A DNA stretch of 64,000 nt. It comes from an uncultured archaeon (GTDB lineage Archaea > Iainarchaeota > Iainarchaeia > Iainarchaeales > GCA-2688035). Below are positions 4,326 to 55,275 of this stretch, in pieces. The stretch is taken from assembly GCA_964640195.1 (NCBI GenBank), contig CAZXIC010000003.1, positions 20,438 through 84,437 on the forward strand, read 5' to 3'. Every line of letters starts with the position of its first letter. Within the stretch, counting starts at the first letter, position 1. The notes beneath the pieces were generated by a model. It worked only from the letters and a program-made list of their open reading frames with translations, searched no databases and was not told where the DNA came from. Made by a program: the position numbers and the translations under genes.

Positions 4326-4868
4326 TTACTGCTTTTGCCGCTTTCCGCCGAAGCTTGCGGCAACCCTCCCGTACGCAATATCGAACAGCAGGAAAGCGGC
4401 AAAGTAAACCATTTCAAACGCGCCGAGCAGGGCAAATGCAAGTACTGCTATTTTCATAAAAAAGCGGTAGCGGAAAAACAATTCAACAAATTTAACCTTA
4501 ACCGTGTTTTTATCTGCGTAATTATTTCCCACTTCGTCCAGAACGCCGGCAATTGTGAGCACAATTAACGGGGCAATTAAGAACGAGAAGGCGCTCGCCC
4601 AATACAGCACTGCAACCACAATTATTGCACCTACAAAGAATGCCAGGTTGTCAACCTTGCGCCCTAGCAGGCAGCTCAGCAGCACTGCCATCAGAATCGT
4701 TGCAGCCGGCGCGCTTGACAGCATCGTGAAAGCAAAAAGCAGTGCGGTTGGAATTGCGAGCAGGAAAGCGGCGCGCTTGCTGAACGCTGCCCTGTCAAAA
4801 GCAGCATCTATCGCAGCGAGCAATGCGCCAAGAAAAGGAAAAGAGACAAGCAAGAACAGTTCGGGCAT
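4326..4868 (-). CDS. Polytopic membrane protein, unknown family
   Basis: Start moved to the ATG at 4868 (MPELFLLVSFPFLG...). Several hydrophobic helices. No recognisable motif. Confidence 0.45.
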   Translation of the reverse strand: MPELFLLVSFPFLGALLAAIDAAFDRAAFSKRAAFLLAIPTALLFAFTMLSSAPAATILMAVLLSCLLGRKVDNLAFFVGAIIVVAVLYWASAFSFLIAPLIVLTIAGVLDEVGNNYADKNTVKVKFVELFFRYRFFMKIAVLAFALLGAFEMVYFAAFLLFDIAYGRVAASFGGKRQKQ

Positions 4869-4891
4869 ATGGGGTCTGAGATAAAATAAAA

Positions 4892-5689
4892 CTATCTTAG
4901 AAGATTTGTTAATTTTTCCCAAGGTTTATTATTAAAACCCCGGAGTACAATATTGAAGTGCCTTTTTTCCAATAATAGCAGTGGGGGGTTAACCGCCAAT
5001 GCTAGCCCTGCTGAATTGAATAGCTCTAGGTCCTCAACACTATTTCCTGCAAAAAAAATTCTATTTTTATCTTTAGATTTTAAACAATATTTTCTTAATA
5101 CCTCTTTTTTAAATGTAGGCAAATCTAGAAAATTCATTTCATATTCCCCGCTAAACTTCTTTTTCCCCCTGGAGTCAATTTTATAATCCATGCTCCAATG
5201 GCCATCAAAAGATAATTCTTTTACAACAATATCTGCAATAAATTTTGGAGCCAGAGATACCAATATAGAGTTAATGCCTTTACTCTTCAAGAATTTGGTA
5301 AATTCCCCTACTCCGACACATAAATTGATTATAAATTTTTGGGCGCAAGAAGAAAATTCCGCATAACTTTCATTCTTAAGAAGAAGAATAAATTTGTTAT
5401 AAATATCATAAAATTCCATCTTTTTGCTTAGCGATATTAAACTATTTAATCTTGCCTTTTTTTTAATATATTTTTTTTCACCAAGGAGAGCATGCTCTGC
5501 AAATATCTTCATTGTAACGTCTAAAATAAAAAAAGAGGGGTATATTGTTCCATCCAAATCAAAGAATGCATACTTAGTATTATCTAATTTGACTTTTATC
5601 TCCTCAAGCGTAAGTTCATTTCCTATAAAGACTCCTGCGGAAACTTTAGTATACTCTTTACCCAAATTATAAAAAGTATTTTCCATCAT
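4892..5689 (-). CDS. HAD-superfamily hydrolase (HAD-IB/SerB-like)
   Basis: Motif I is FFDLDGTIYPSF, with GNSVEDLELF (motif IV-like) near the C-terminus. AT-rich gene. Confidence 0.6.
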   Translation of the reverse strand: MMENTFYNLGKEYTKVSAGVFIGNELTLEEIKVKLDNTKYAFFDLDGTIYPSFFILDVTMKIFAEHALLGEKKYIKKKARLNSLISLSKKMEFYDIYNKFILLLKNESYAEFSSCAQKFIINLCVGVGEFTKFLKSKGINSILVSLAPKFIADIVVKELSFDGHWSMDYKIDSRGKKKFSGEYEMNFLDLPTFKKEVLRKYCLKSKDKNRIFFAGNSVEDLELFNSAGLALAVNPPLLLLEKRHFNIVLRGFNNKPWEKLTNLLR

Positions 5690-6446
5690 ATTTCCTGGAA
5701 ATTTTTACTATGCCTCTTAAAATTCTTAAGCCTTTTTCTGTTTCAATAAGGTTACCTAAATGGACTGCATCTGCTCCTTGAGCAAAAAGTTTTTTTGCTT
5801 GCTCAATTTTTTTTATACCGCTTGTGGGGATAAGAAATAAGTCAGTATTTCTTTTAATTAATCCAATATGATCCAATGGAGGAGGCAACATTGCACCAGA
5901 ACCTCCTGCCATTATATAGAAACGCATGCCTAAATATTGAGCGGCTAATGCCATGGCTAAACTAAGTTCTGGCTTTTTGCGTGGTATAGGAAAGGACCTT
6001 GCCAGCCAATTCGATGAACCTACAACCCCTCGTTCATCAAATACATAGGCTGTAGGCAATAACTCAAAATTTTTTTTACTCATTGGGATTGCATTTAGTA
6101 TCAGATTATCCCTAAGAAAGAATATGTTTTCTGCATTTAAGACACTCATCCAATAAGCTGCTGTTTTGTCTTTAATTCCTCTTAAAAGGCCAAGAGAATT
6201 ATTTGTGATATAACTTACTGTAGTAAAATCAAAATCTTTAGTCGCAATTTTAATTACATTTTGCATCTGGGCTGCATTTATAATACTCCCTCCAATTGCA
6301 ATGTGGGAGATATTAAGTTCTTGAATCTCCTTTAAAACCAAATGAAGGTGGCTCTCGCTATATTCTTCTGGGTCTATCTGCGGTATTACGAGGGGATGTT
6401 CTGCCCTAAGTTTGTATATCTTTTTCTCGATTGGGCCAATTTTCAA
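5667..6446 (-). CDS. GGGPS/PcrB-family prenyltransferase (geranylgeranylglyceryl-phosphate-synthase-like TIM barrel)
   Basis: The motif series QIDPEE, IAIGGS, VLNAEN, YIMAGGSGA and GADAVHLGNLIE parallels KLDPD, ISGT/GGS, VLNS, YxExGSGA and GADxIVVGN of GGGPS/PcrB. Overlaps the HAD gene by 23 nt. Confidence 0.7.
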   Translation of the reverse strand: MKIGPIEKKIYKLRAEHPLVIPQIDPEEYSESHLHLVLKEIQELNISHIAIGGSIINAAQMQNVIKIATKDFDFTTVSYITNNSLGLLRGIKDKTAAYWMSVLNAENIFFLRDNLILNAIPMSKKNFELLPTAYVFDERGVVGSSNWLARSFPIPRKKPELSLAMALAAQYLGMRFYIMAGGSGAMLPPPLDHIGLIKRNTDLFLIPTSGIKKIEQAKKLFAQGADAVHLGNLIETEKGLRILRGIVKISRKYDGKYFL

Positions 6447-6452
6447 TGCGGT

Positions 6453-7586
6453 TCACCCTTCTGAAAATATTAGAGCTAAATGTCCTTGGGAAAGATCTAT
6501 CGAAGGTTTTCTAAACAAAATGTTCTTATTTAAAGCTTTACTATATATCCCACTCAACAAACCACTAATCATTATAAATTCTACATCTTTAGCATATTTA
6601 GTCCATGGAAAATGATTTATAACTACCTGTTGTTTAGTACCCGGCAACGCAATAACCTCCCCCCATCCTAGCGCGGATAAGAGTTCTACTACACTTTGCA
6701 AATCTTTCATGCCAAATTCAGGAAATAAGTTTTTGCCTGTCGAAACAGCTATTTCAAACATTTTGTCTCTCATAACTTTGGGCAAGGCTAATTCAAGCAT
6801 ATAGATTGCACTAACCTCCATAAGAAATAACCTTTCTGCCCCGTGGGTGATTATCCCCCTATTGTACTTGAAAAGTTTAGAATCTAGAAATGTTTGAAAA
6901 GATTTTTTGTATCTAATTTTTGTCTCTATATTAAGTTTTCTGTAAGTAGCGAAATCAGGCTTAAGATCATCCACGTTTGTTTCCTTGAATACGCCCGAAG
7001 AAAAATATTTTTCTAAGATTTGAGGAACCGCACATTTAACCTTACAAGTATGCTCTTTGCCAGCAAATTTACTATCGTACAAGCAACCTTCAATTTTTGG
7101 TTCTTGTAATATCCATGCCACTACACCTGCCGCGCCCCCTGTTGCTAAGAAGTAATCATATCCCAATTTTCGGCATACGGCAAAATTTCTTAAAGAATAA
7201 TCAACAGTTCGATTTTCAACATTGGTACTTTGTGCTATCTCTGTAGCATAGGTCCCCTCCACAAATTTACTTGCAATAGTGATCCATTTTTTTACTGCAT
7301 TACCAGGATGGTCCTTAATATTTTCAAATCTACCAAGTTGTGAAAATCGATAGCCAAATCTTTTACCTAAAGAGTACATTACTTGCTTCCCCCTATCCCC
7401 AAAACCTCCTACCAGATTCTTCTCTAAGTTAACAAAGAAAGATTCTGGGACCAACAATTGTCTGGCAAAAATATTGGTTTTCCCAGATATTTTGAAATCC
7501 ACAAAGCCAGGCATGTTGAAAATAAGTGCTCTGGGCATTATGTATCGTTGGACATAAAATCGCACTACTTTGTCTTGAAGATCCAT
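6453..7586 (-). CDS. Tandem V4R (4-vinyl-reductase) domain protein
   Basis: The first half ends in GGAAGVVAWILQEPKIEGCLYDSKFAGKEHTCKVKC (a V4R C-terminal Cys pattern). The second half carries LSALGWGEV. Alignable by eye with the single-domain V4R ORFs at 12239..12808 and 49435..49998. Confidence 0.6.
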   Translation of the reverse strand: MDLQDKVVRFYVQRYIMPRALIFNMPGFVDFKISGKTNIFARQLLVPESFFVNLEKNLVGGFGDRGKQVMYSLGKRFGYRFSQLGRFENIKDHPGNAVKKWITIASKFVEGTYATEIAQSTNVENRTVDYSLRNFAVCRKLGYDYFLATGGAAGVVAWILQEPKIEGCLYDSKFAGKEHTCKVKCAVPQILEKYFSSGVFKETNVDDLKPDFATYRKLNIETKIRYKKSFQTFLDSKLFKYNRGIITHGAERLFLMEVSAIYMLELALPKVMRDKMFEIAVSTGKNLFPEFGMKDLQSVVELLSALGWGEVIALPGTKQQVVINHFPWTKYAKDVEFIMISGLLSGIYSKALNKNILFRKPSIDLSQGHLALIFSEG

Positions 7587-7595
7587 CGTCTCAAC

Positions 7596-8396
7596 CTAAG
7601 ACTCAATCTCAAACTCAATTCCTTTGCTAGTTATATTATAAGATTTTATGCCCCCATCTATTGAGGAGTATCTCATCTTTCTAACTTGTATTGTTCGATT
7701 AAATTGTTCCCCTACGGTCAATACATTTAGAACTAAAACACCATCCGTTATAAATTCACTCACCCCATCTGCGCTCAGGGCTTTTATTTCTTCAGATAAT
7801 TCACTTGTAAGCAAGCTTGTAACCCCATATTTCTTCAATTCTTTTATTAGTTTGTACAAAATGCTTTTTGCCACAATCTGCTCCGTTCTTGGAATCGGTG
7901 AAACTGTTTCCGCTATTTGCACAAGTGAGAAGCCGCCTTTTTCTCCCAGCCCGCCGATTATAAGAGCGTCAGTCAGCGTGGTCATGCTGTCAACTGTTAC
8001 GCGCTTGGGCTTGAATTCCTTGATTAAAACATCAACTTTCTGCATAAAATCGTCTCCTGAAGTGATATCAAAATACAGGATCTTAATCAGATTCTTGCTT
8101 TGCAGCGCCTTCAAGTCCCAGCCAAACTTTTCGGCATGCTTTTGCAATTCCTCTTCACTCTGCTCCGTGCTGATGTAAAGCCCTTTCTCGCCAAAAACCT
8201 GGGCGCCATTTATCAAAAACTGCAGGCAAAGAGTGCTCTTACCAGTTCCAGCGCCGCCACTGACCAAAACAAGGTTTGCCTCAGGAATGCCACCCATCAG
8301 CACCTTGTCTAAGCCCTGAATGCCTGTTTTTGTCCTGGACATTTCAATAATATAACCGTCCTCTTGTATATAAATTTTTCTTAAAGGAGAAAGCAT
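7596..8396 (-). CDS. KaiC-like / RecA-superfamily ATPase (single domain)
   Basis: TGIQGLDKVLMGGIPEANLVLVSGGAGTGKSTLCLQFLINGA (Walker A) and RVTVDSMT (Walker B-like). An alternative ATG at 8342 (MSRTKTG) is the likelier start. Confidence 0.85.
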   Translation of the reverse strand: MLSPLRKIYIQEDGYIIEMSRTKTGIQGLDKVLMGGIPEANLVLVSGGAGTGKSTLCLQFLINGAQVFGEKGLYISTEQSEEELQKHAEKFGWDLKALQSKNLIKILYFDITSGDDFMQKVDVLIKEFKPKRVTVDSMTTLTDALIIGGLGEKGGFSLVQIAETVSPIPRTEQIVAKSILYKLIKELKKYGVTSLLTSELSEEIKALSADGVSEFITDGVLVLNVLTVGEQFNRTIQVRKMRYSSIDGGIKSYNITSKGIEFEIES

Positions 8397-8406
8397 AGAT
8401 AAAGGC

Positions 8407-9224
8407 TTATTTGAAGCAGGTCATTGTTTGCTTCCTTAGCTCTTCAGCCAGCCGGGGTTCTTTGAGGAATTTCACCAGCACCTTCGTTTTTCTCTCAAAA
8501 ACCGAGTGGAAGAAATCATCAATGTTCAACTCTTTTACAGTCTTTGTTTTTGAGTATATTTCATTCAGTTTCTGCTTTATTTCAGGCGAATAGAAAACCT
8601 GCAGAACAAAGTTACCAAGAACTACAAGGTCAAAGGTAGAGGCAACATCGACACCTATTTTTGATTTTATGCCTGTTTTGTTCCAGAAATCAGCGCACCA
8701 ACGGTCAATTTCATCTTTTCCTTTCACAAGTGAGTAAGCATCAAAAAGCATTCCCAAGTCCTTAATGTTTGCGTATTCCTCTCTTGAAAGGAACAGGGGG
8801 ATCCACAAATGATTCCAATTCAAACAAAGAAGTGGCTTTTTAGGTAAAAGAGGCAGGAACTTTCCGAGTGAATCAATCAAAAACAGGTCAACGGCATAAA
8901 TCGTGTCAAACTCCAGCGTCCTGCCCTCAATGCTCTTGATGAAGTCTTGGGTGTATGCTGCGTGCTGTCCCTGGAAGAACTTTTGCCCTTCGTCAATCCA
9001 GTGCAGGGAAAGAGAGTAGCCTTCATCAGTTTTTTCAATGACAGACTCCTGAACCAGCTCGCCCAGCGCCTTGTGCACTGCCTGATAAGATACTGGCTCT
9101 TTTGACTGCTTTTTACCCTGTTGAAGATTTCCTTTGCGCTGAGCGGCCATTGCTCACCCAGAATCTGAATTATCGTGCCTTTTGTCCCGCCTTCCTTCCC
9201 AAAGGCAAGCAGAGCCCTAGCCAT
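8407..9224 (-). pseudogene. wHTH-containing protein interrupted by a 1-nt frameshift in an A5 run
   Basis: ORFs 8877..9224 and 8407..9150 join if one A is added to the coding-strand run (plus-strand T run 9110-9114). The join reads ...EIFNRVKKQSKEPVSYQAVHKALGELVQESVIEK. Confidence 0.6.
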
Positions 9225-12238: not shown

Positions 12239-12808
12239 TCAAACCTCCAGCTCCAGCTGTGCCTGCACCCGCTTGTCCGATACGTCGAATTCGTGCTGTT
12301 TTTTGATTATGAACTCGCAGTCTTTTTCGCCCAAGGCAATGCAGTGGGTTTCCACGCACTCGACGTTTGACTGGAATACCTTACTGAAGAGGCCGGCAAG
12401 GATGCCGCGGACTATGTGGTCACTCGGCGTCTTGACCTTTCCGCGCAGCCTGCCGGTTAGGGGGTTGTTCAAAACGCGCACAATCGCCTTCTTTCTCTGA
12501 AAATCAAGGTCTACGTTCTTTATGTTGCCCCAGCCGGAAGCAACAAAATACTGTTCCAAAAAGTTAACCATCTTCTCGCCCTTGAAGCCGAACTCCAAGC
12601 CGAACTGGCTGACAAGGCGCTCCCTCACGCTCTGCTTGACATTGTAGTAAACGTGCCGCTCAAAAGCAGGATTGTCAGTGTTAAGCATTCCGGAAAGGAG
12701 TTCAGTGGGGCAGATAAGGAAAGGCAGGTTAACAAGGAAAAAGTTGCTGTTTTTGTAATGCAGACCATTCGTGAAAATAAACCTGTCGTAAAAGGAATTA
12801 AGCATCAC
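12239..12808 (-). CDS. V4R-domain protein
   Basis: FVASGWGNIKNVDLDF...VECVETHCIALGEKDCEFIIKK is the V4R GWG plus CxxxGxxxCEF pattern. Confidence 0.7.
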   Translation of the reverse strand: MMLNSFYDRFIFTNGLHYKNSNFFLVNLPFLICPTELLSGMLNTDNPAFERHVYYNVKQSVRERLVSQFGLEFGFKGEKMVNFLEQYFVASGWGNIKNVDLDFQRKKAIVRVLNNPLTGRLRGKVKTPSDHIVRGILAGLFSKVFQSNVECVETHCIALGEKDCEFIIKKQHEFDVSDKRVQAQLELEV

Positions 12809-13149
12809 AACTCACTTTCGGGTTTGTGGCTGAATTCAAGAATCTTGTGGATTGTCCTAAGCTTTTCTGCCTGCAGGGGCCACACGACAAGAGCGTTGCC
12901 AACGCGCTTGCTGAGCAACAACTGCTTTTCAACCAGTTTTTTGAGGTAATAGGCATACTTGGTGCTGGCCTGCTTTTTCCGCTTGCGCGAGGAAAGGTCT
13001 TCCCGGAAATGCTCTGCGATTTCAAGTGCAGTGGTCGGCCAGTGCTCCAAGACGAGCTCGAAAATCTCTTTTTCCCTTCCGTGCAAAGCAAAGGCAAAGG
13101 AGGAACTGCTACCAGGCAGCAATTCTGGCATGGCAGGTGTGTTGGGCAT
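12805..13149 (-). CDS. Small winged-helix transcriptional regulator
   Basis: GREKEIFELVLEHWPTTALEIAEHF...YAYYLKKLVEKQLLLSKRVGNALVVWP. Has a 4-nt overlap with the V4R gene. Confidence 0.55.
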   Translation of the reverse strand: MPNTPAMPELLPGSSSSFAFALHGREKEIFELVLEHWPTTALEIAEHFREDLSSRKRKKQASTKYAYYLKKLVEKQLLLSKRVGNALVVWPLQAEKLRTIHKILEFSHKPESEL

Positions 13150-28065: not shown

Positions 28066-28137
28066 GGGCTCGTGGTCTAGTGGCATGACATCACCCTTAC
28101 AAGGTGAGGGTCGCCGGTTCGATTCCGGCCGGGCCCA
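28066..28137 (+). tRNA. tRNA-Val(TAC)
   Basis: Manual cloverleaf: GGGCTCG...CGGGCCC-A, anticodon loop CTTACAA, T arm GCCGG-TTCGATT-CCGGC. Confidence 0.9.
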
Positions 28138-28172: not shown

Positions 28173-28317
28173 TGGACCCTGCGAGATTCGAACTCGCGAT
28201 TTCCACCACACTGGAGCCGCAACGTGTTTTTTATAAGCGAATAATTTTTTGCAGTGCTTTTTTTTAAAGGCTTGAAGGCTCTGCCAAGGTGGCGTCCTAC
28301 CGCTAGACTAAGGGCCC
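28173..28317 (-). tRNA. tRNA-Ala(GGC) with a 73-nt intron at the canonical 37/38 position
   Basis: Exons 28282-28317 and 28173-28208. G3:U70 Ala identity pair. Anticodon loop TTGGCA|intron. GAGCC/GGCTC helix flanks the splice sites (BHB-like). Confidence 0.8.
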
Positions 28318-38113: not shown

Positions 38114-38824
38114 TCACTTCATTGCCTCCCACAGCACCTGCTCCCTTGGCTTTACCGCAATGCCCTTGTTTGTTATTTCAAAGGGGTGCACGTTTTTGCT
38201 GTGGGCGGTGCCCCGCATTTTTCTGACGAAAATGCTTCTGTGGGGCGGAATGAAGTATAGGGCGATTACGCCGTCGGCAACAAATTCCTCGATACCGAAG
38301 GCGCTGAACTCTGTTCTTCCCTCCCTGGTTTCTGCGGTGAAGACTGTTGTGCAGTCCAGTTCCTTCAACCCGTCCAAGAGTTCAAACAACTTTGGCCTGA
38401 ATTCCGTGCGCTCCATCCACACTGCAAATGCAGTCGTTGAGTCAATAACAAGGCGCTTTGCGCCCATCTCGTTAACTGTTTTGGCAACCAGGTCAAGCTC
38501 TTCGTTTATTTTGTCCACAACCGCTTTTGCGTCCCTCGCATAACCCAGATTCATCTTGTAGATGTTCATCAGCTTTTTTTCCTGCAGGGGCTGAATGTCC
38601 CAGTCAAAGCTCTGCATGTCCCAGCTGATTGCCTTCATATTGCTTTCAATCGTTACAAAGACGCCGGGCTCAGCGAACTGCCTTGCCCCCTCATAAATGT
38701 ACTGCATGCTCAGAATGCTTTTCCCTGTGCCATTTGCTCCGCTGAGCAGAACACTGCTGCCCTCTGGCAGGCCACCTTCAAGCAGCTGGTCAAGGCCGAG
38801 GATGCCTGTCTGGACGCGCCGCAT
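38114..38824 (-). CDS. KaiC-like / RecA-superfamily ATPase (single domain)
   Basis: TGILGLDQLLEGGLPEGSSVLLSGANGTGKSILSMQYIYEGA, LVIDSTT. Confidence 0.85.
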   Translation of the reverse strand: MRRVQTGILGLDQLLEGGLPEGSSVLLSGANGTGKSILSMQYIYEGARQFAEPGVFVTIESNMKAISWDMQSFDWDIQPLQEKKLMNIYKMNLGYARDAKAVVDKINEELDLVAKTVNEMGAKRLVIDSTTAFAVWMERTEFRPKLFELLDGLKELDCTTVFTAETREGRTEFSAFGIEEFVADGVIALYFIPPHRSIFVRKMRGTAHSKNVHPFEITNKGIAVKPREQVLWEAMK

Positions 38825-38936: not shown

Positions 38937-39659
38937 ATGCCTGACATGCCTTCAAACAACGCTGAGCAGCATCCGCAAGGCATGCAGGAAAAGGTTGATT
39001 TGGTTGACCTCATAGAGCAGCCTGCCTGGAAAACGATCCTGATTGATTTGGTTAAAAGCGAACGAATGAACCCCTGGGACATTGACCTGGTTGAACTGGC
39101 GGAAAAGTACTGGCAGAAAATCCAGAACATGGAGAGGAGCAGCCTGAGGATTCCTGCAAACGCAATCCTCGCATCTGCTATCTTGCTCAAGCTAAAGGCA
39201 AGGACAATCAAGCTCAGCAGCATTGAGGAGGAGGAAGAGGAAACAAAGGAAATAAGCCAGGAAGAGATGGCGATGATTGAAGAAAGCATTCCGGAGCTGA
39301 GGGGCCAGAGGCAGTTCAGGGAGGGAAAGATAACGCTGGACGAGCTGGTTGTTTCAATTGAGCGGATTCTGCTGAAAACAAAGCAGAGGCAGTCAATCCT
39401 GAGGCAGAAGGAAATCCCTGAATTCAAGTTCTTCCTGGAAGAGAAAAACATCGAGCAGAAAATAGAGGAGGTTTACAGCAGGATAAAGGAAAGGTGTGAC
39501 AGCCAGGGGCTTGTTACCTTCACTGCATTGCTGGACAAGCGCACGCCCCTGGAAATGGTTGAGTGCTTCATTCCACTGCTGTTCCTTGTGAATGGGGGAA
39601 AGCTGAACGCCTGGCAGGAGGAATGGTTCGGCGAAATAATGATTAGCATAGTGAAATAG
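38937..39659 (+). CDS. scpA: Segregation and condensation protein A (kleisin)
   Basis: MNPWDIDLVELAEKYWQKI and the C-terminal winged helix CFIPLLFLVNGGKL. Confidence 0.8.
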   Translation: MPDMPSNNAEQHPQGMQEKVDLVDLIEQPAWKTILIDLVKSERMNPWDIDLVELAEKYWQKIQNMERSSLRIPANAILASAILLKLKARTIKLSSIEEEEEETKEISQEEMAMIEESIPELRGQRQFREGKITLDELVVSIERILLKTKQRQSILRQKEIPEFKFFLEEKNIEQKIEEVYSRIKERCDSQGLVTFTALLDKRTPLEMVECFIPLLFLVNGGKLNAWQEEWFGEIMISIVK

Positions 39660-39696: not shown

Positions 39697-41142
39697 ATGG
39701 GGGATGAAAAGGGAGCTAAGACCTTAGAGAAATTAATTAAGCGGATTGAGGAAAGCAAGGAAATCTCTGAGGTAAACAAAAAGCTTATTCTTGAGTATGA
39801 TGCTGAGAGGGAAGCCCAGGGCATTGGGGCAAACGGTAAGGTGCCTTCAAGCAGGATTCACTTCATGAGAATTGTTTTTCTTTTGAATGACAAACTCAAA
39901 AAGCCTTTTAAGAAAATGACAAAGCAGGAGCTGATAGCTTTTGTTAATGAGCTGGGAAAGATGAAGAAAAAGAACTACGGCAAGGCCCTGGAATTAAAGC
40001 AGTTGACCGCGAGTAAAGGCGAAATTACATCCCCGGAAGTAAGGGAACACTTTGACATCAACCGCTTTTATTCAAGAGTCCTGATGAACAATATTGCGAA
40101 GGAATGTCCCGAGGACTTCAAGCTCAAGCTAGGCAGAACAGCTCCGCATCCCAGGCCACACACGCTGACCTTTATCGGAAAAAATGCCAAGAAATTTAGG
40201 GCGGAAGAGAAGCAGCGCTATTCCGAGAAGTCAATCAACACTTTCAAGTCGCAGCTTAAATGCTTCTTCAAATGGCTGGATAAGGAAGACATCATTAGTT
40301 GGATTAAAATCGGCAGAGACCGGTCAAAGCTCCCGAAGGATATTTATTTCCCGGCGGAAATTCTTAATCTGATCAAGGCCGAGAACAACATCAGGAACAA
40401 GACCATTATTTCTGTTTTATATGAGAGCGGTGCCAGGGCTGCAGAGTTCCTTGGCCTGAATATCGGAAGCTTGAAGCGCGACAAGTACTCTTACATGGTC
40501 GTGGTAAGCGGCAAGACAGGGGACAGGCCAATAAGGCTGATTAAATCAATTCCATACATTACCCAATGGCTTGCGGTTCATCCCTTTAAGGATGATCCCA
40601 ATGCCCCCTTATGGGTTTCAAGCTCAACGAGAAGCCCTGACAAGGCAAGGCTTGATGAGAACAACCTAAACAGGCTGCTCAAAAGATCGTCAAGACAGGC
40701 CGGCTTCAAGAAGAACATTTACCCGCACCTGATGCGGCACAGCAGGCTTACAGAGCTTGCAAAGACTTTGACTGAGAGCGAGTTAAGGCTTTTTGCTGGC
40801 TGGGGAAAGGATTCTGACATGGTTGAAACCTACGTGCACCTGTCGCACAGGGATCTCGATAAAGCAATTCTGAGGCAGGAAGGCCTGCTCGAGGAAGAGG
40901 AAGATGTGGATGTCTTAAAGCCAAAGACCTGCGAAATATGCGGAAAGCAGAATTCTCCAACAGACAAATTCTGCCTGCAATGCGCAACACCGCTGGACAT
41001 AAGAACAGCATTGGAGCTGGACAAGCAGCAAGAGCTAATGAGCAGCGGAAGGGAAAGAATCGAGCTGATGGCATTGAAAGAGGGCCTGGAAAAGATGATG
41101 CAAAAAATGAATGCGATGGAGCAGAGGCAGATTAAGGCATAA
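39697..41142 (+). CDS. Tyrosine recombinase/integrase with a C-terminal zinc ribbon and coiled coil
   Basis: Catalytic pattern ESGARAAE ... HLMRHSR ... GW ... ETYVH. CEICGK...CLQC after the catalytic domain. Confidence 0.85.
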   Translation: MGDEKGAKTLEKLIKRIEESKEISEVNKKLILEYDAEREAQGIGANGKVPSSRIHFMRIVFLLNDKLKKPFKKMTKQELIAFVNELGKMKKKNYGKALELKQLTASKGEITSPEVREHFDINRFYSRVLMNNIAKECPEDFKLKLGRTAPHPRPHTLTFIGKNAKKFRAEEKQRYSEKSINTFKSQLKCFFKWLDKEDIISWIKIGRDRSKLPKDIYFPAEILNLIKAENNIRNKTIISVLYESGARAAEFLGLNIGSLKRDKYSYMVVVSGKTGDRPIRLIKSIPYITQWLAVHPFKDDPNAPLWVSSSTRSPDKARLDENNLNRLLKRSSRQAGFKKNIYPHLMRHSRLTELAKTLTESELRLFAGWGKDSDMVETYVHLSHRDLDKAILRQEGLLEEEEDVDVLKPKTCEICGKQNSPTDKFCLQCATPLDIRTALELDKQQELMSSGRERIELMALKEGLEKMMQKMNAMEQRQIKA

Positions 41143-41143
41143 A

Positions 41144-41803
41144 TCACAAATTTTTATCTTGCAGGTAGTGCAGCATCAAGTGGTTCCCTGACAGGCGAAT
41201 CCATCTTATAAATTCATTTACCTCAGATGCAAACTTAGCCCTCTGCTTCCTTTTGAGTTTCTTCGCGAGTTTTCTTTCGTTCACCAGCAGGTAGTCTATA
41301 AAGTAATCGCCAACAGTGCTCAAATTAAACTCCGTGTCTAATGACTTTTTGTACTTGGCCCAATCACTTATTTCCTTATTCCCGCAGTGGTCTTTGCGCC
41401 ATAACGGATGCCTTGCAATCGTCTGCAGGTATGGCCTGACAAGATTGGGAAGCTCCTTAAACTCTTCGACAACGTGCTTGAATTCGCCGTCAGTATATCC
41501 TTTCTTTATAATCATTTTTCCAAAAACAAATTCCGGATTTATATCATAAACAGCTCCGGGTTTGCGGCCAATGTATTTTTTTTCAGGAAGTTTAACGATA
41601 AGGCCTTCTGTTTCCAATTTTGTCTTTATTTTTGAAACGCGTCCTTTCGAGTACTTGGTTTCTTCTCTTATTTCCCGCTGGGTTTTGAGCTTTTCCGCTA
41701 TGCAAAGAAACACCTCTTTTGACTGCTCGTGAGTCCAGATATTTGATTCGTAATCATTCTTGCGTTTTTTCTTTGATTTTTTCCTTGTAGATGTTTTTTT
41801 CAT
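41144..41803 (-). CDS. wHTH protein of the element
   Basis: TQREIREETKYSKGRVSKIKTKLETEGLIVKL. Basic N-terminus. Confidence 0.45.
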   Translation of the reverse strand: MKKTSTRKKSKKKRKNDYESNIWTHEQSKEVFLCIAEKLKTQREIREETKYSKGRVSKIKTKLETEGLIVKLPEKKYIGRKPGAVYDINPEFVFGKMIIKKGYTDGEFKHVVEEFKELPNLVRPYLQTIARHPLWRKDHCGNKEISDWAKYKKSLDTEFNLSTVGDYFIDYLLVNERKLAKKLKRKQRAKFASEVNEFIRWIRLSGNHLMLHYLQDKNL

Positions 41804-41891
41804 ATGGGTTACCTCAAACAGGTGTATTACGGTAACTCTTATATAGAAGCCTATTTAAACATATTTATCGATATGTATGGGAAAAAAATTA

Positions 41892-42023
41892 ATGACTATT
41901 AGCGGAGAAGAAAGGGACCTGTCCCTTATTCGAAAGTATTGTACTGAGCACGGGCGAATTATTTCAGCCTTCATGGTCGATTCAGCAGTCCAAAAAATAA
42001 GAGAAGAGGCTGGTGAAACATGA
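41892..42023 (+). CDS. Unlisted 43-aa ORF
   Basis: Read manually: MTISGEERDLSLIRKYCTEHGRIISAFMVDSAVQKIREEAGET. ATGA overlap with the next small ORF. Confidence 0.25.
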   Translation: MTISGEERDLSLIRKYCTEHGRIISAFMVDSAVQKIREEAGET

Positions 42024-42184
42024 AGGAAAACGCGAAGGTCTGCGAGAGTTGCGGCCAGCCGATTGAAACACTCGAAGAACTTGAAAAGCGGGTTGGCCAA
42101 CCAATGGTTTTTTTGTTTAAAGAATATGAACGCTGGAAGGAATTGAAAGAAAAAGGGGAAAAGAGAGATGAACAGACTGACTGA
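42020..42184 (+). CDS. Unlisted 54-aa ORF with a CxxC
   Basis: MKENAKVCESCGQPIETLEELEKRVGQPMVFLFKEYERWKELKEKGEKRDEQTD. Confidence 0.25.
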   Translation: MKENAKVCESCGQPIETLEELEKRVGQPMVFLFKEYERWKELKEKGEKRDEQTD

Positions 42185-42204
42185 CAGACCGGGAAGTGAG
42201 CTAG

Positions 42205-42408
42205 TTGGATTTGCCTTTTGAAGAATTCAAGGATAAGAGAGTCAGGCTGCTGACTACTGATTTTGGCCATGACTTAACATATACTGGGAAAATCATTCGG
42301 GTAACAGATACTCACATCTGGTTTATCGACAAGTTCAACAGACCCTATGTTTTCGCGATCGTTGCAATTAAAAAGGTAGAACTGCAGAGGAGCGATTGCG
42401 ATGAGTGA
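42205..42408 (+). CDS. Small beta-rich (Sm/SH3-like?) protein
   Basis: KRVRLLTTDFGHDLTYTGKIIRVTDTHIWFIDKFNRPYVFAIVAIKKVEL. A counterpart sits at 57451..57669 in the second element. Confidence 0.35.
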   Translation: MDLPFEEFKDKRVRLLTTDFGHDLTYTGKIIRVTDTHIWFIDKFNRPYVFAIVAIKKVELQRSDCDE

Positions 42409-43519
42409 AACCGATGACGAGAACACGATAGAGCTGCTGAACAAGCAACTGAACACTGTTTCTGCGCTGCGCAAGCTTACCTTTTTCGAGATCGAGCAGC
42501 CCAAGGGAACATTCTGCATGCGGCCGCAGCTGCATGTATTAATTGTCAAGCCTTTCGGCATGATCAAGTCTGGCAACATACAGCAGTTTGAGGAAGTGCT
42601 GAAGGATGATGTTGTTATAAGGGATGAGCTGACAAAGCCCGCAATACTCGGCACCATCTCAAAGGACAAAACATATGTGGCCGGCCTGCCTGGGGAGATA
42701 GGCGGAAAGGTTCTCGTGCTTGACGAGTTCAACAACATCGAGGCTTTCGGCCAGAAGGCTCTTTTAGGGATTCTTGAGAACCAGCGGATCAACAGGCAGC
42801 TGGGCTTTGCTGTTTCCGAGCCACAAACAATCCGGCCGAACGAGTGGACTGATTTAAGCGTTACTAACGGGAGCATTGAAGGAACCGTGAATTTCTCGTG
42901 CATAGCCTTCGCCATGTTTTACCCGAAGCCAAAAAATAATTCCTTGTTCGAGGAGAACCCACAATCGCTTTTGGGCCTCAAGTCAAGGTTCTGCCCCAAC
43001 TTCAGCTGCCCCGAGCACAGCGAGCTCATGGATGCTTTGCGTGGCGGGCAGGCCTTCAAGCTCAAGTATTACGGCCTGCCAGTGCGCCGGGTTTTCATTG
43101 AGAAGGATGCCTACTCGCAGTACATCGATTTCTACGCCAAGTTCACTGAAAGGTTTGTGGACACGATTCTGGAAAAGGACCAGGTAGGTTTCCTTACGCG
43201 GGTCAGCTCCGACATCCTCAGGTTTGCTGCGCACGAGGTAATGGACAGGGACTCCCCGCAGAATACAATGCTGAAGATCTCTGATGCAGGCGTCTTAATC
43301 GACCAGGCCGAGAAATGGACTGAGGAGCTACTGAAACAGTACATGTACGAGGAAAGGGCAGGCACTTACGAGGAGTTTGCCAAGCTGTACAACGAGAGGC
43401 CGAACGAGGCCAATCGGCTCTATGCCCAGAGGCTCAACAAAAGCATCAGGCAGATTCAGCGCTGGAAGAAAAGGCTGGCGGAAACGCAGCTGGTCGTTGA
43501 AAGGGATGTGGTAACATGA
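42401..43519 (+). CDS. MCM-like AAA+ ATPase lacking the MCM N-terminal domain, with a divergent P-loop
   Basis: LHVLIVKPFGMIKS resembles IHVLLVGDPGTAKS. VLVLDEFNNI resembles CCIDEFDKM. LLGILENQRI resembles IHEAMEQQTI. LLGLKSRF resembles LLSRFDL. Confidence 0.55.
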   Translation: MSETDDENTIELLNKQLNTVSALRKLTFFEIEQPKGTFCMRPQLHVLIVKPFGMIKSGNIQQFEEVLKDDVVIRDELTKPAILGTISKDKTYVAGLPGEIGGKVLVLDEFNNIEAFGQKALLGILENQRINRQLGFAVSEPQTIRPNEWTDLSVTNGSIEGTVNFSCIAFAMFYPKPKNNSLFEENPQSLLGLKSRFCPNFSCPEHSELMDALRGGQAFKLKYYGLPVRRVFIEKDAYSQYIDFYAKFTERFVDTILEKDQVGFLTRVSSDILRFAAHEVMDRDSPQNTMLKISDAGVLIDQAEKWTEELLKQYMYEERAGTYEEFAKLYNERPNEANRLYAQRLNKSIRQIQRWKKRLAETQLVVERDVVT

Positions 43520-43661
43520 CACTACATGACGCCCCATGGCACACTTTGTCACCCGTGACATTCCCCAGAATACAGAGAAGGGCGACAGCTACAACTACAA
43601 CCTCTATAAATACGCAGATGTCACGGTGTCATCATACGACAGGGCGTGACAGACCATGACA
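43514..43661. repeat. Cluster of GTGACA/TGTCAC and ATGAC iterons, including the palindrome TGTCACccGTGACA (43547-43560)
   Basis: At least seven copies within about 150 nt, immediately downstream of the MCM-like gene. A TATA-like ctataaata lies at 43603-43611. Confidence 0.5.
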
Positions 43662-44172
43662 AGAACAGGAGTTGAAATGATGGAAAAAGCAAGCCAACAC
43701 AGGAGCCAAGTGAGGGAAATGGCTATCCGCCTGCCTGCTGGACAGCATTTTTTTGTCTTCAGGGCGGAACAAAGGAAAAAAGGGGGCTTTTTGAGGTGCC
43801 AGGGCAGGTAATTAAGGGGGCTGGAATTTTGAAGCATAAACTGTCCTATATGGATTCCAGGGGAAAAAATTCGCAGGAAACGCGTTTTGTGGGCTTTCCA
43901 GGGGGATTTGTGTTTAGGCAATTGCCGAAGCGTGTGAAAAAAAGAGAAAAAGTGGGGAATTTCATGGGTGTTGAAGAGAGAATATTGAAAAAGCACGGAT
44001 TTCAGTGGTATCTGGATTTGAAGAGGGAAATTCAAGGCAAAAGAGGTGTTTTGTTTGAGTGATTCTTATAATGAACAGCAAAGAATTTGGGAGCGAATGC
44101 AGGAAAAGAAAAAGGCTAAACAAAGGGCTTATTCTGATACATCTGAAGGAAAAATAACAGAAAAGAGGTGAT

Positions 44173-44658
44173 GTGGTGGATAATAAACAAAGGCATGAGT
44201 TGACGGTTGAAGAACGTAGGAGAGGCGGCAGGGCGACTAGTGAAAGAAAGAAGAAAGCAAACGCCGTGCGGGCCCTGAAGCACGGCCGGTATTCGAAGTC
44301 AGAGGTATTGAAGGGCTTTGAGTTCTGCAGCTCCTGCATTTACAGAGATTCGTGCATGGCCTTCAAGCCCGGGCAGGCATGCCCGCTCAGGCTGACGCTT
44401 TTGAAGGAAGTCAACAAGGTGGCTGGCCCTGAAGGCGCGCAGAGCTGGTTGAATGTGCTGCTGAGAGGCATGCAGGACCTGTATGTTCTGTCTAAGACGT
44501 CTGGGGATCCGGCGGCTGCCCTGCAAAAATTCATGCGGTTGTGGATCGAGTTCGGTCGGATAATGTTCCCGCGAAAGATTGAGGTAAGCGGCCAGGACAG
44601 GGAAATCAAGGTAATTTTTGGCGAGGATGATGAGGATGGCGCAGATAGTGAGGATTAG
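44173..44658 (+). CDS. Possible small terminase subunit
   Basis: Basic N-terminus (RRRGGRATSERKKK). Sits immediately upstream of, and overlaps, the large terminase. Call is by position only. Confidence 0.3.
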   Translation: MVDNKQRHELTVEERRRGGRATSERKKKANAVRALKHGRYSKSEVLKGFEFCSSCIYRDSCMAFKPGQACPLRLTLLKEVNKVAGPEGAQSWLNVLLRGMQDLYVLSKTSGDPAAALQKFMRLWIEFGRIMFPRKIEVSGQDREIKVIFGEDDEDGADSED

Positions 44659-45865
44659 GTTCAAGGCCCATGAGAAGCAGCAGCAGGTAATCGATTCCCC
44701 TGCAAGGTTTAGAGTGCTTGCAGCAGGCCGAAGGTTCGGAAAGTCTTACTTGGCTTCTGCCGAGGCCATTCGCTTCGCCCTGAAAAAGAAAAGGCAAACA
44801 GTGTGGTGCGTTTCACCGATTTACGCGCAGACGCGGAAGCTTTGGCGGATCATAATGGAACTGCTTCCGGAGAAATTAATTAGGAACGTGAACAGGAGCG
44901 AGCTTGCGATTGAGTTAGTCAACGGCAGCACGATATGGTTTCGTTCAGCGGACAACCCGGATTCGCTGAGGGGCGAGGGCGTGGACTTTCTGGTGCTCGA
45001 TGAATGCGCCTTGATCAAGCGCGCGGCCTGGGAAGAAGCCTTAAGGCCTTCCTTGAGTGACACCAAGGGAGCGGGCCTTTTTATCAGCACGCCGAAGAGC
45101 TTTAACTGGTTTCATGAACTGTATGCGTCAGCAGCGGAAGAAACCGAAATACAGTCCTGGCGGTTTCCAACATCAGCTTCCCCTTTTGTCGATCCCGAGG
45201 AAATTGAAAAAGCCGAGAAAAGCCTGCCGCAGATTGTTTTCAGGCAGGAGTACCTGGCCGAGTTCATTGATGAGGCTGGCTCTGTTTTTAGGGGAGTGAA
45301 TGGATGCATTAGCGGCGAATTGGAAGAGCCGGAGCAGGGAGCAGAGTATATTTTGGGTGTTGACCTTGCAAAGCATGCGGACTTTACTGTTTTGTGCGTG
45401 TTTCATGCTGAAAGAAAACACCTTGTTGCTTTCCAGCGTTTCAATGAGATTTCCTGGCCGTTTCAAAAGAGCAAAATTGTTGCATTGGCCAAAAAATACA
45501 ATAATGCGAGAATTATTTTGGATTCAAGCGGTGTGGGCGATCCTATTTTTGATGATTTGAGCAACCAGACGGACGTGGAAAGTTTCAAGTTCACTAATGA
45601 AAGCAAGGCCAAGCTCATTGAGTCGCTTTCGATTGCGATAGAGCAAAGACAGCTAACGTTCCCGAATATTCCCGAGCTTGTTAATGAACTACACGCTTTT
45701 GGATTCGAGGTTTTGCCAAGCGGTCGAATGCGTTACTGCGCGCCAGGGCACCTGCATGATGACTGTGTCATCGCGCTTGCTTTGGCCTGGAAGGAATGCA
45801 AGGACTACCGCTATGTTGATCCTGAATATCCTGCCGGGTATCCGATCTATTCCTGGGAGAGCTGA
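44618..45865 (+). CDS. terL: Terminase large subunit
   Basis: Walker A-like AAGRRFGKSY, Walker B DFLVLDECA, nuclease acidic motifs GVDLAKHADFT and HDDCVIALALA. Confidence 0.85.
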   Translation: MARMMRMAQIVRIRFKAHEKQQQVIDSPARFRVLAAGRRFGKSYLASAEAIRFALKKKRQTVWCVSPIYAQTRKLWRIIMELLPEKLIRNVNRSELAIELVNGSTIWFRSADNPDSLRGEGVDFLVLDECALIKRAAWEEALRPSLSDTKGAGLFISTPKSFNWFHELYASAAEETEIQSWRFPTSASPFVDPEEIEKAEKSLPQIVFRQEYLAEFIDEAGSVFRGVNGCISGELEEPEQGAEYILGVDLAKHADFTVLCVFHAERKHLVAFQRFNEISWPFQKSKIVALAKKYNNARIILDSSGVGDPIFDDLSNQTDVESFKFTNESKAKLIESLSIAIEQRQLTFPNIPELVNELHAFGFEVLPSGRMRYCAPGHLHDDCVIALALAWKECKDYRYVDPEYPAGYPIYSWES

Positions 45866-45877
45866 AAGGGGAAAGCC

Positions 45878-46084
45878 ATGAAAGAAGAAACTGACTGGAC
45901 GGATGTGATGCTGTATTTGAGGGAGCAGGTAAACAATCGCAGGATAGAGATTCCCAACGACAAGAAATTAATTGACAGCTTGCTCGCTGTGAAGGCAAAC
46001 CCGGACGGCACGGTAAACACGGCCACAATGAATAGCCGGGTAAGGTCATTGGCACTGGCGATCTGGGCAGGAAGAAAAAAGTAA
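45878..46084 (+). CDS. Hypothetical protein
   Basis: ORF only. Confidence 0.25.
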   Translation: MKEETDWTDVMLYLREQVNNRRIEIPNDKKLIDSLLAVKANPDGTVNTATMNSRVRSLALAIWAGRKK

Positions 46085-46346
46085 AGTAAAAAAACCCTGA
46101 GGAAATTCGGCAGGAGCATGGCTGCAATCAGGAGCAACTACTGTTAAGCTGCTTAACAGTAGTCATAAGACAGGAATAAGAAAAAAAGGAGTAAGTGGTT
46201 CAGCAGAACCTTTGCCTGATTCTTCTCGGAGTATTGCTAAGTTTTTGAGCAAAAAAGGCGCGGCAATCAAAGGTGCCACCGAAAAGTATATTAATGATGG
46301 GATACATATTGGGATACAGAAGAATGTTTTTGGGGGAGTGATTTTT

Positions 46347-46652
46347 ATGCCGAAAAAAACTTTTGAACAACACATGGGGGAAGTCAATGCCCTCCCTGAA
46401 GAAGAAAGGGAGCAGGAGCTTCGGATCAGAGTCGACCAGGCAGTCATTGACAAGCTCAAGGAATTCAAGAAAGAGCTGGACGCGCCAAGCTATAACAGCG
46501 CGCTGAGGAAATTGCTGGGCGTGAAGGAGAACGAGCCGGTGGTTGAAAAAGCCATCGCCAGGATCCAGGAGAACATCGACAAGGAAAAAAAGATTAGAAA
46601 GCTTAACAAGAAGCTACAAGCAGAGATAAAGAAAAAGCAAGGGGGAAATTGA
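46347..46652 (+). CDS. Hypothetical protein, possible RHH fold
   Basis: IRVDQAVIDKLKEFKKELDAPSYNSALRKLL. Start set at the ATG at 46347. Confidence 0.3.
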   Translation: MPKKTFEQHMGEVNALPEEEREQELRIRVDQAVIDKLKEFKKELDAPSYNSALRKLLGVKENEPVVEKAIARIQENIDKEKKIRKLNKKLQAEIKKKQGGN

Positions 46653-46653
46653 A

Positions 46654-47241
46654 ATGAATAGTTTTGAAGAACTTGAAGAAGCACTGCTGGAGTCAGACAG
46701 GTGGGTTGATGCCAGCAGGAGAACTGATTCCAGCGACGCCAGCGTTTACGAGCAGGCAGCCCAGAGGATTCATGACCTGAACGAGGTCAAGGTGGAACAA
46801 GAGCAGAGGTTTACCGAACTGAAAGAAAAAGTAGAGAAGAAAAAACTCGCGGACACCAAGGAAAAGCTGCTGAAGGAAAAAGAGGAGCTGAAGAAAAAGA
46901 TTGCCGACCAAAAGGCAATGAACGCCGAGCTTGACAGGCAGGCAGCATCATTGAGAGAAACGTTGCAAGATTCAAAGAGGCACGGGCGAAAACTGTTTGC
47001 GGACGCGGACCTGGAAATAGATAAGCTGAAAGAGGCCAGGATGAACATTTTCCAAAAAGCGCACTCTTTGCCGGAAGACAAGATTTCATCAACTGAATTA
47101 GTAGAAAAAAAGAGCTCGGTTGTAAGCGATACTGCTCCAAGCAGAAAAGTATTGTGCTACGATGGCTTGGACCCAATCATCGACGAATTGAAACAGAGGC
47201 GCATGAGGATTTTCCAGGACGCTCGAAGAGGTGGCAACTGA
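46654..47241 (+). CDS. Coiled-coil protein (scaffold-like by position)
   Basis: E/K-rich heptads. TGATG overlap with the next gene. Confidence 0.35.
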   Translation: MNSFEELEEALLESDRWVDASRRTDSSDASVYEQAAQRIHDLNEVKVEQEQRFTELKEKVEKKKLADTKEKLLKEKEELKKKIADQKAMNAELDRQAASLRETLQDSKRHGRKLFADADLEIDKLKEARMNIFQKAHSLPEDKISSTELVEKKSSVVSDTAPSRKVLCYDGLDPIIDELKQRRMRIFQDARRGGN

Positions 47242-47672: not shown

Positions 47673-47742
47673 CGGGATGTCTTGGGAGCTTAATAAAGTT
47701 GATTCCATCCATAAGCATGGCTCCCAAGGTAACAGCAAAATG

Positions 47743-49431: not shown

Positions 49432-49434
49432 AAA

Positions 49435-50669: not shown

Positions 50670-50764
50670 TTTAACAGCCTGCCTTTAATATATACTCTTA
50701 AATATATTTATTTAAGCACCTTAAAAAGGTTCTGGAAAGCCCTAATTCGCGAAGCAGAGGCTGT

Positions 50765-55188: not shown

Positions 55189-55275
55189 GCCGGCGTGGCT
55201 GAGTCCGGTTGAAGGCACACCGCTCGAAACGGTGCAGGCCGAAAGGCCTCGCAGGTTCAAATCCTGCCGCCGGCG
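55189..55275 (+). tRNA. tRNA-Ser(CGA)
   Basis: Acceptor GCCGGCG/CGCCGGC, G73, anticodon loop CTCGAAA, long variable arm GGCC-GAAA-GGCC, T arm GCAGG-TTCAAAT-CCTGC. Confidence 0.9.

Follow-up and report, generated by a model that had tools for sequence, protein, structure and literature searches.

Which function unites a KaiC-like ATPase, a protein made of two V4R domains and a prenyltransferase in a single archaeal operon, and is the association a peculiarity of one genome or a recurring arrangement? These questions are raised by a locus of an uncultured archaeon of the Iainarchaeales (GenBank assembly GCA_964640195.1, contig CAZXIC010000003.1), of which we analyzed a stretch of 64,000 nucleotides (nt), referred to below as the window. 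The main cluster occupies positions 4892-9224, all of it on the minus strand. In the direction of transcription it encodes a predicted TrmB-like winged-helix regulator, split by a frameshift (8407-9224), a single-domain KaiC-like ATPase of 266 amino acids (aa; 7596-8396), a tandem-V4R protein of 377 aa that we named T2V4R (6453-7586), a TIM-barrel prenyltransferase of the PcrB/GGGPS family (5667-6446) and, as the last gene, a phosphatase of the HAD-IB type (SerB-like subfamily; 4892-5689). A reading of the sequence without database searches, hereafter the sequence-only reading, had described five tightly packed open reading frames (ORFs), and the ORF listing verified them at 4892-5689, 5667-6446, 6453-7586, 7596-8396 and 8407-9150, with intergenic gaps of 10, 9 and 6 nt and a single overlap of 23 nt between the HAD and PcrB genes; an additional minus-strand ORF in another frame (8877-9224) accounts for the upper limit at 9224. 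The domains proposed for the five products (winged helix, KaiC, tandem V4R, PcrB family and HAD) held as well, either by Pfam or by comparison of predicted structures and profiles. We found that the KaiC-like ATPase, with its motifs intact, and the double-V4R protein form the invariant core of a conserved module that occurs almost only in DPANN archaea.

Distribution and gene neighborhood of the KaiC-like/double-V4R core

A scan for T2V4R using one genome per species yielded 55 loci, and neighborhoods were counted on 56 non-redundant loci (cited below, where needed, by L numbers). These counts rest on our own ORF calls and on searches of the related loci with the window proteins and with profiles built from neighboring genes, supplemented by Pfam and NCBIfam checks, and the taxonomic labels are those given by the submitters of the metagenome-assembled genomes. 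Among the 38 loci with such a label, 34 belong to DPANN lineages (Micrarchaeota, Iainarchaeum, Aenigmatarchaeota, Altiarchaeota and 'Nanohalarchaeota'). A KaiC-like gene was located within three genes of T2V4R in 52 of the 56 loci, and in 38 it was directly upstream on the same strand. Genes for isoprenoid enzymes (PcrB, UbiA, UbiA-like proteins, UppS or geranylgeranyl reductase, GGR) were found at the same distance in 49/56 loci, those without one being mostly contigs that end at the T2V4R anchor. When positions within the same loci were compared, isoprenoid enzymes accounted for 62 of the 276 genes within three positions of T2V4R but for only 3 of 364 genes further out. The adjacency of V4R, KaiC-like and prenyltransferase genes that had been noticed in the window is thus enriched far beyond chance in other genomes. 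It holds over T2V4R identities ranging from 26% to 76%, in several DPANN phyla and in differing genomic contexts, and in the gene calls of the related loci the gene boundaries abut or overlap. No T2V4R relatives were found in a scan of viral contigs.

The type of partner enzyme tracks the phylogeny of T2V4R. In a monophyletic clade of proteins sharing 45-76% identity with the window protein, PcrB is always the next gene, followed by a HAD gene and/or a gene for a flavoprotein of the geranylgeranyl reductase family. In a neighboring grade, a convergent class-I methyltransferase comes next and then a divergent UbiA-like membrane protein or UppS, the UbiA-like proteins being matched to UbiA neighbors by HHalign at 93%. 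The basal lineages adjoin UbiA prenyltransferases, for which PF01040 was recovered in 7/7 tested. The sole feature common to PcrB, UbiA, UppS and GGR as partners is a polyprenyl substrate. The UbiA-like proteins found beside the methyltransferase and T2V4R (L029, L030, L033-L035, L037, L042, L043 and L048) are polytopic, of about 285 aa, and keep the motifs YS.K and D.RD...DK; they have no Pfam match and apparently are without the first Asp-rich motif. Separate pairs of a KaiC-like and a single-V4R protein also recur in DPANN loci (L019, L038 and L061).

Proteins encoded by the main cluster

T2V4R is a soluble protein composed of two repeats resembling XylR_N plus V4R (about residues 20-186 and 240-376), for which no Pfam match was obtained even at E <= 10 and none in NCBIfam. 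In its AlphaFold2 model, built with 47 homologues (pLDDT 90, pTM 0.89), the two repeats have the same order of strands and helices, and the top Foldseek matches were the phenol-sensor domains of MopR, PoxR and DmpR (E 4e-4, probability 1.0, TM-score 0.54-0.56), followed by H-NOX and then Bet3/TRAPP. A search of PDB sequences with the T2V4R profile returned only a marginal match, to MopR (E 0.14). In HHalign comparisons with a profile of bona fide V4R proteins, half 1 was matched at 96.2% (E 2e-9) and half 2 at 97.0% (E 8e-11). The alignment of the two halves with one another was insignificant (E 0.043); since they are no longer directly similar, duplication is supported by their shared topology and by the fact that each half matches V4R. 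The model indicates that tandem V4R protein is the right description, and the profiles point to remote V4R homology in both halves. The searches returned 90 close homologues, and 345 cluster-50 representatives whose length is nearly always 355-390 aa. Some members are named 'predicted hydrocarbon binding protein' by JGI, and T2V4R defines an unnamed protein family that has no Pfam or NCBIfam model. Several basic or polar residues are invariant, namely K36, R42, K75, R252, Y71, S72, T112 and N219.

Other proteins with this fold offer partial parallels. In purple-bacterial photosynthesis clusters, the V4R gene bchJ adjoins bchG, of the UbiA family, and bchP, of the GGR family, and we know of no ATPase partner for either BchJ or Bet3/TRAPP. 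Both share the V4R fold with T2V4R (PMC2253512), and Bet3 has been captured with bound palmitate (6aq3), but T2V4R shows no sequence-level membership in those families.

The KaiC-like ATPase (7596-8396) matched PF06745 with 186.7 bits against a cut-off of 26.6 (E 5.6e-55), and every NCBIfam match to a KaiC-type model was under its cut-off. It has a Walker A motif (GGAGTGKST), a Walker B motif (TVDS), a catalytic Glu and the conserved K and R; all of these positions (Walker A Lys, Walker B Asp, the acidic catalytic residue, Lys and Arg) are likewise kept by the KaiC-like protein of a second cluster in the window, described below. We surveyed these motifs in the 38 orthologues encoded directly upstream of T2V4R, and found the Walker A Lys in 37/38, both the Walker B Asp and an acidic catalytic residue in 38/38, and the conserved Lys and Arg in 37-38 of them. 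The second residue of the catalytic pair was Gln in 25 of these 38 proteins, and Glu in 20 of 27 other KaiC paralogues encoded nearby. Gln at this position hints at an ATPase in which hydrolysis would be slow and switch-like. Two or three tandem KaiC-like genes are often located 5' of T2V4R (L001, L012, L014, L033, L039, L045, L046 and others), and in these arrays the copy adjacent to T2V4R usually has Glu-Gln at the catalytic pair, the other copies more often having Glu-Glu.

Circadian KaiC of cyanobacteria is a protein of about 500 aa with two domains, CI and CII, and with KaiA and KaiB as partners. We rejected a circadian identity for the KaiC-like proteins of the two clusters, as both are single-domain proteins (266 and 313 aa) whose scores for NF006799 and TIGR02655 are far under the cut-offs, and as neither KaiA nor KaiB was found among the neighboring genes. 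In archaea, KaiC-like ATPases are said to have been proposed as signal transduction hubs by Makarova, Galperin and Koonin in 2017. As in the archaeal KaiC-like signaling modules that include ArlH, GvpD and CirA, a single-domain ATPase with intact motifs is paired here with a putative input protein; the present module differs from these in its V4R partner and in the linked prenyltransferase genes. A third KaiC-like gene of the window (38114-38824; PF06745, 7e-66) adjoins a ScpA homologue (38937-39659) and has no V4R or prenyltransferase neighbor.

The prenyltransferase (5667-6446) had been read from its motifs as a member of the GGGPS/PcrB group. Its membership in the PcrB family stands (PF01884, 5e-15; best PDB relative the M. 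thermautotrophicus GGGPS 4MM1, 3e-29), but synthesis of geranylgeranylglyceryl phosphate (GGGP) is not to be assumed. The protein keeps the Mg/diphosphate motif IDPEE, which aligns to D25/E27/E28 of 4MM1, as well as GGS and the beta-5 Tyr. We compared it with 20 orthologues from related T2V4R loci, and found that the stretch which 4MM1 and the bacterial GGGPS 4JEJ share as FYLEAGSGA is replaced in the window protein, as in each of the 20 orthologues, by FYI[M/A/L]AGGSG, which contains no acidic residue, and that TSG replaces GGG in the beta-7 phosphate loop of the same proteins. The Glu of the YxE motif, which belongs to a Tyr/Tyr/Glu triad, is strictly conserved in GGGPS groups I and II, where it polarizes the C3 hydroxyl of glycerol-1-phosphate (G1P; PMC9385802). 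The NCBIfam cut-offs were also missed (NF003198, 143 against 247; TIGR01769, 101 against 161.55; TIGR01768, 77 against 113). Because the catalytic Glu is absent, the phosphate loop is altered and these cut-offs are missed, the label 'GGGP synthase' is unsafe. An Asp that is invariant in the YVFD(E/D)R motif of these proteins might compensate for the lost Glu. From this comparison of residues, we assign the window protein to a divergent DPANN clade of PcrB-family prenyltransferases that lacks the canonical YxE Glu, and whose acceptor substrate may differ from G1P. The clade thus combines likenesses to canonical GGGPS of groups I and II, Bacillus PcrB and MoeO5 (the same Pfam family, TIM-barrel relatives and the conserved motifs named above) with differences in the YxE Glu, in the phosphate loop and in its sub-cut-off scores. 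Use of a different acceptor substrate is known within the family from MoeO5.

The HAD gene (4892-5689) encodes a protein with motif I FFDLDGT (DxDxT) and matched PF12710 with 36.4 bits against a cut-off of 27 (E 9e-9); the nearest NCBIfam model was TIGR01488 for HAD-IB (3e-10), for which its 40.3 bits are just under the cut-off of 45. In 17 related loci a HAD gene follows PcrB, or PcrB and GGR. In Bacillus, heptaprenylglyceryl phosphate is dephosphorylated, a step that the HAD gene downstream of PcrB recalls. Neither a UbiA gene nor a second PcrB gene was found within the window.

The first gene of the operon had no match in Pfam, TrmB included, or in NCBIfam. Within an A5 run near 9105-9113, a shift of the reading frame by 1 nt separates its N-terminal winged helix, in ORF 8877-9224, from the rest of the regulator, in ORF 8407-9150. 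When the frames are joined, a regulator of 272 aa is obtained, and its gap-free alignment with the intact 272-aa orthologue P0093 shows 66% identity. The identical frameshift is present in the Logan assembly L006, which is an independent assembly of the same sample, and intact 272-aa orthologues exist in other loci. Since the window gene is frameshifted, the structure was modeled on P0093. The AlphaFold2 model (pLDDT 89) shows a winged helix at the N terminus, joined by a linker helix to a PLD-like domain at the C terminus, and its best Foldseek match was TrmBL2 (E 1e-6, probability 1.0), followed by the PLD-like domains of MITD1 and PPK1. The overall TM-score with TrmBL2 is low (0.33) because the orientation of the domains differs. 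Judging from this model, we consider the first gene to encode a winged-helix regulator that is probably TrmB-like, and to be a pseudogene in the window. It would share with TrmB and TrmBL2 the succession of winged helix-turn-helix (wHTH), helix and PLD-like domain, and differ from them in the missing Pfam match, in the TM-score and, in this genome, in the frameshift. The idea that a DNA-binding protein is part of the module therefore survives only in part: the wHTH assignment holds by AlphaFold2 and Foldseek, but the family is an occasional neighbor, present within six genes of T2V4R in 12 of the 56 loci, and its gene is disrupted here.

Second cluster, base composition and surrounding genes

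The combination of KaiC-like ATPase, prenyltransferase and V4R protein recurs at 48877-51706, as the sequence-only reading had proposed. Again on the minus strand, this second cluster begins with a KaiC-like ATPase of 313 aa with an internal insertion (50765-51706; PF06745, 5e-38, 131 bits), followed by the cis-prenyltransferase UppS (49995-50669; PF01255, 7.5e-43, 147 bits; TIGR00055, 115.4 against a cut-off of 109.55) and by a single-domain V4R protein of 187 aa, V4Rb, starting MSIFD... (49435-49998; present among the gene calls of L007), the UppS stop and the V4Rb start overlapping by 4 nt. V4Rb matched PF02830 at 4e-6, below the gathering score, and had one homologue only in the protein collection, without a contig record. 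The last gene, U184 (48877-49431; G+C 0.28), encodes a protein of 184 aa for which there was no family match and no homologue in the related loci.

A V4R gene (12239-12808) and, 5' of it, a wHTH gene (12805-13149) were also identified on the minus strand, closer to the main cluster. The V4R assignment of this pair was confirmed (PF02830, 2.9e-12), while its wHTH part is weakly supported (Penicillinase_R, 0.013). Such a pair also occurs upstream of KaiC/T2V4R in L008, in L011, where it is directly adjacent, and in L030. It resembles MsvR, a redox-sensitive regulator of methanogens that joins a wHTH with a V4R domain, in the order of the two parts and in the match of the V4R part to the MsvR model (NF053755, 2.6e-6). 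Unlike MsvR, it is encoded by two genes, and its score is 27 against a cut-off of 220 bits. The pair may accordingly be described as resembling a split MsvR-like regulator, loosely linked to the main cluster.

We next consider the base composition, from which horizontal acquisition had been suggested. In the main operon, G+C falls in the 5' to 3' direction (wHTH 0.44, KaiC 0.41, V4R 0.36, PcrB 0.355 and HAD 0.31), the rest of the window having 0.47. The contrast of about 30 with about 50 percent given by the sequence-only reading was thus real but somewhat overstated, and it is strong in the G+C of third codon positions (GC3). GC3 is 0.28-0.31 in T2V4R, PcrB and HAD and 0.27-0.29 in V4Rb and U184, intermediate (0.44-0.53) in the wHTH gene, the two KaiC-like genes and UppS, and about 0.55-0.70 in most other genes of the window. 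G+C also falls 5' to 3' in the second cluster, from 0.435 to 0.28. The distal halves of both operons look compositionally foreign, and the fall of G+C and GC3 along both suggests a mosaic origin or internal recombination. However, the bias is not confined to this genome. Among 43 related loci, the module had a lower G+C than the flanking DNA in 37, with a mean difference of -3.7 points (Wilcoxon 7e-7), and control segments were without AT bias (18/42), so that AT-richness is a family-wide trait of the module. In the closest relative, L008 (76% identity), which shares with the window a nearby HAD_2 gene and an upstream pair of wHTH and V4R genes, the module is not AT-rich (0.48 compared with 0.50). 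Best matches are themselves mosaic, KaiC and the regulator being nearest L010, and T2V4R, PcrB and HAD nearest L008. No mobile-element genes flank the main cluster. A simple recent insertion of the cluster as an island was rejected, given the partial synteny with L008, the lack of flanking mobility genes and the family-wide low G+C; gene exchange among DPANN lineages is plausible. What stands of the earlier suggestion is the clearly foreign-like GC3 of the distal genes, whereas recent insertion is not shown.

The gene that comes directly after HAD on the minus strand (4326-4922) encodes a multi-pass membrane protein of 198 aa and of no known family. Its G+C of 0.48 is native-like, and it was not counted as a member of the module because it is unconserved in the related loci. 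Just upstream of the second cluster, the region 39697-47700 contains genes for a tyrosine integrase that carries a Zn ribbon (39697-41142; PF00589, 2e-13) and for the large subunit of a terminase (44618-45865; Terminase_6N, 5e-20; Terminase_6C, 1e-12), which suggest a provirus or viral remnant. No convincing att repeats were found around this region and the second cluster, and the nearest tRNA, for Ser, is at 55189-55275. An Rfam scan of the window returned tRNAs only, among them a match of 145 nt on the minus strand (28173-28317) that was not reported by ARAGORN; it adjoins a tRNA-Val (28066-28137) and is probably an intron-containing archaeal tRNA.

Possible roles of the module in isoprenoid metabolism

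The explanation that we favor, to which we would give about an even chance of being correct, is that of an isoprenoid-sensing V4R/KaiC switch controlling the neighboring prenyl-transfer enzymes. Phenol sensors of the XylR/DmpR type act as dimers, and T2V4R would be the single-chain counterpart of such a dimeric V4R sensor, binding as its ligand an isoprenoid such as a polyprenyl diphosphate or an ether-lipid intermediate. Whether the ligand is bound would gate the KaiC-like ATPase, through its nucleotide state or its oligomerization, and the pair would in turn switch or tune the prenyl-transfer step, mainly via direct protein-protein contact with the enzyme. In some genomes, nearby winged-helix regulators of the TrmB-like or MsvR-like kind may add a transcriptional output. 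The gating step is suggested by the parallel with V4R sensors that gate an AAA+ module, V4R domains being binders of hydrophobic ligands with signaling either in cis or in trans (PMC2253512), and the Gln usually found as second residue of the catalytic pair would be compatible with a slow, switch-like ATPase.

The parallel with the activators XylR, DmpR, MopR and PoxR extends from their sensor domains, which are the best structural matches of T2V4R, to a common logic in which a hydrophobic-ligand sensor is combined with an oligomeric ATPase and sometimes with a DNA-binding component. In those activators, however, the V4R sensor, the AAA+ ATPase and the HTH are parts of one polypeptide, whereas here they are separate proteins. 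Moreover, their ATPase is of the AAA+, sigma-54-dependent kind, as opposed to the RecA/KaiC fold of the present one, and archaea are without sigma-54. The DNA-binding partner is optional here, and the associated genes are those of isoprenoid enzymes and not of aromatic catabolism.

Several points weigh against the switch as we propose it, or against its novelty. The core has no DNA-binding or other recognizable output domain. Phenol-sensor V4R domains typically carry Zn-site cysteines, and in T2V4R those of half 1 are kept in only 29 and 25 of 47 sequences and are absent from half 2. A metagenome scan did not recover the second cluster from any other genome, and a look-up with UppS returned only the same sample. 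A substrate carrier or chaperone would explain the coupling in operons and the co-diversification with the enzymes just as well. As to novelty, we found no published description of the module, in agreement with the earlier claim that it was uncharacterized; full-text literature searches returned no paper linking KaiC-like ATPases, V4R domains and prenyltransferases, though Makarova et al. 2017 may already mention a link between KaiC and V4R.

If the pair acts as a carrier or chaperone, T2V4R would hold the prenyl donor or the lipid product, and the KaiC-like ATPase would spend ATP on loading it, extracting it or shuttling it between membrane and prenyltransferase. Such a role would be catalytic-accessory and not regulatory, and it might serve the salvage of host-derived isoprenoids. 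We regard it as rather unlikely, though as the main rival of the switch. Besides the tight operons and the co-diversification of T2V4R with enzyme type, the polyprenyl substrate is the only trait that all partner enzymes have in common, the invariant basic and polar residues of T2V4R would suit a phosphate or diphosphate head group, and related folds bind lipids or large hydrophobic ligands, as palmitoylated Bet3 and H-NOX do. In addition, lipid pathways with missing steps, or a loss of G1P dehydrogenase (G1PDH), have been reported for the host lineages (PMC12892359, PMC8975820). Neither core protein shows a transport or membrane-association feature, though, and the Gln of the catalytic pair suggests slow hydrolysis and not a motor. 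To our knowledge, the KaiC-like ATPases characterized so far are regulators and not lipid handlers. A purely transcriptional role, in which V4R senses a metabolite and KaiC relays the signal to the TrmB-like and/or the wHTH+V4R regulator controlling lipid genes, would account for the TrmB-like gene at the head of the operon in the window and in L010, for its presence near T2V4R in 12 of the 56 loci, and for the wHTH+V4R pairs upstream in the window, L008, L011 and L030. We consider it improbable, as there is no such regulator within six genes in 44/56 loci, as the regulator is the only one of the five genes in the window's operon to be disrupted, by its frameshift, and as the matching of enzyme type to T2V4R clade speaks for a direct connection with the enzyme.

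The core might alternatively be enzymatic, one or more KaiC-like proteins together with V4R phosphorylating polyprenol or polyprenyl phosphate, or making an acceptor, and so supplying the variant prenyltransferase. KaiC-family proteins do have phosphotransfer chemistry, and we know of no archaeal gene assigned to the geranylgeraniol and geranylgeranyl-phosphate kinases (GGK and GGPK). These two kinases are steps in the archaeal lipid scheme (PMC9385802), tandem KaiC copies are frequent, the acceptor site of the PcrB clade is altered, and a loss of G1PDH has been reported for Iainarchaeota and Micrarchaeota. A small-molecule kinase of the RecA/KaiC fold would nevertheless have no known precedent, and we think this role very unlikely. 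Finally, the genes could be unrelated and merely hitch-hiking on an AT-rich mobile island. The AT-richness of the module relative to its flanks in 37/43 loci, the foreign-like GC3 of the distal genes in the window and the integrase and terminase near the second cluster would agree with this. Yet the adjacency persists down to 26% identity, in several DPANN phyla and in different contexts, the main cluster lacks flanking mobile-element genes, and neither viral-contig relatives nor att repeats were found in the scans described above, so that we give chance association hardly any credence.

These findings bear on the lipid metabolism of DPANN archaea, many of which are thought to depend on host lipids. 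PcrB genes of the 'GGGPS' kind and UbiA genes of the 'DGGGPS' kind sit in the conserved KaiC/double-V4R module. A recent survey places the loss of G1PDH in the ancestor shared by Iainarchaeota and Micrarchaeota, with 'GGGPS' and 'DGGGPS' scored as present (PMC12892359); that the genes scored there are the same as those of the module is not implied. As the PcrB clade is without the residue held essential for prenylation of G1P, automatic 'GGGPS' annotation in these lineages calls for caution. A further-reaching possibility, which we regard as doubtful, is that KaiC/T2V4R is an ATP-driven handler of isoprenoid lipids, which would bind polyprenyl or ether-lipid molecules and feed variant prenyltransferases with them. 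DPANN archaea without G1PDH, or without all steps of the lipid pathway, could then make or remodel their membranes with salvaged precursors, the Glu-less PcrB acting on an acceptor other than G1P. If true, this would represent a branch of archaeal lipid metabolism that was hitherto undescribed and that has accessory machinery of its own. The module supplies candidates for a system of lipid-pathway control or hand-off in DPANN archaea, and it would place KaiC-like ATPases and V4R domains, which are abundant and mostly unassigned in archaea, in a defined biochemical context.

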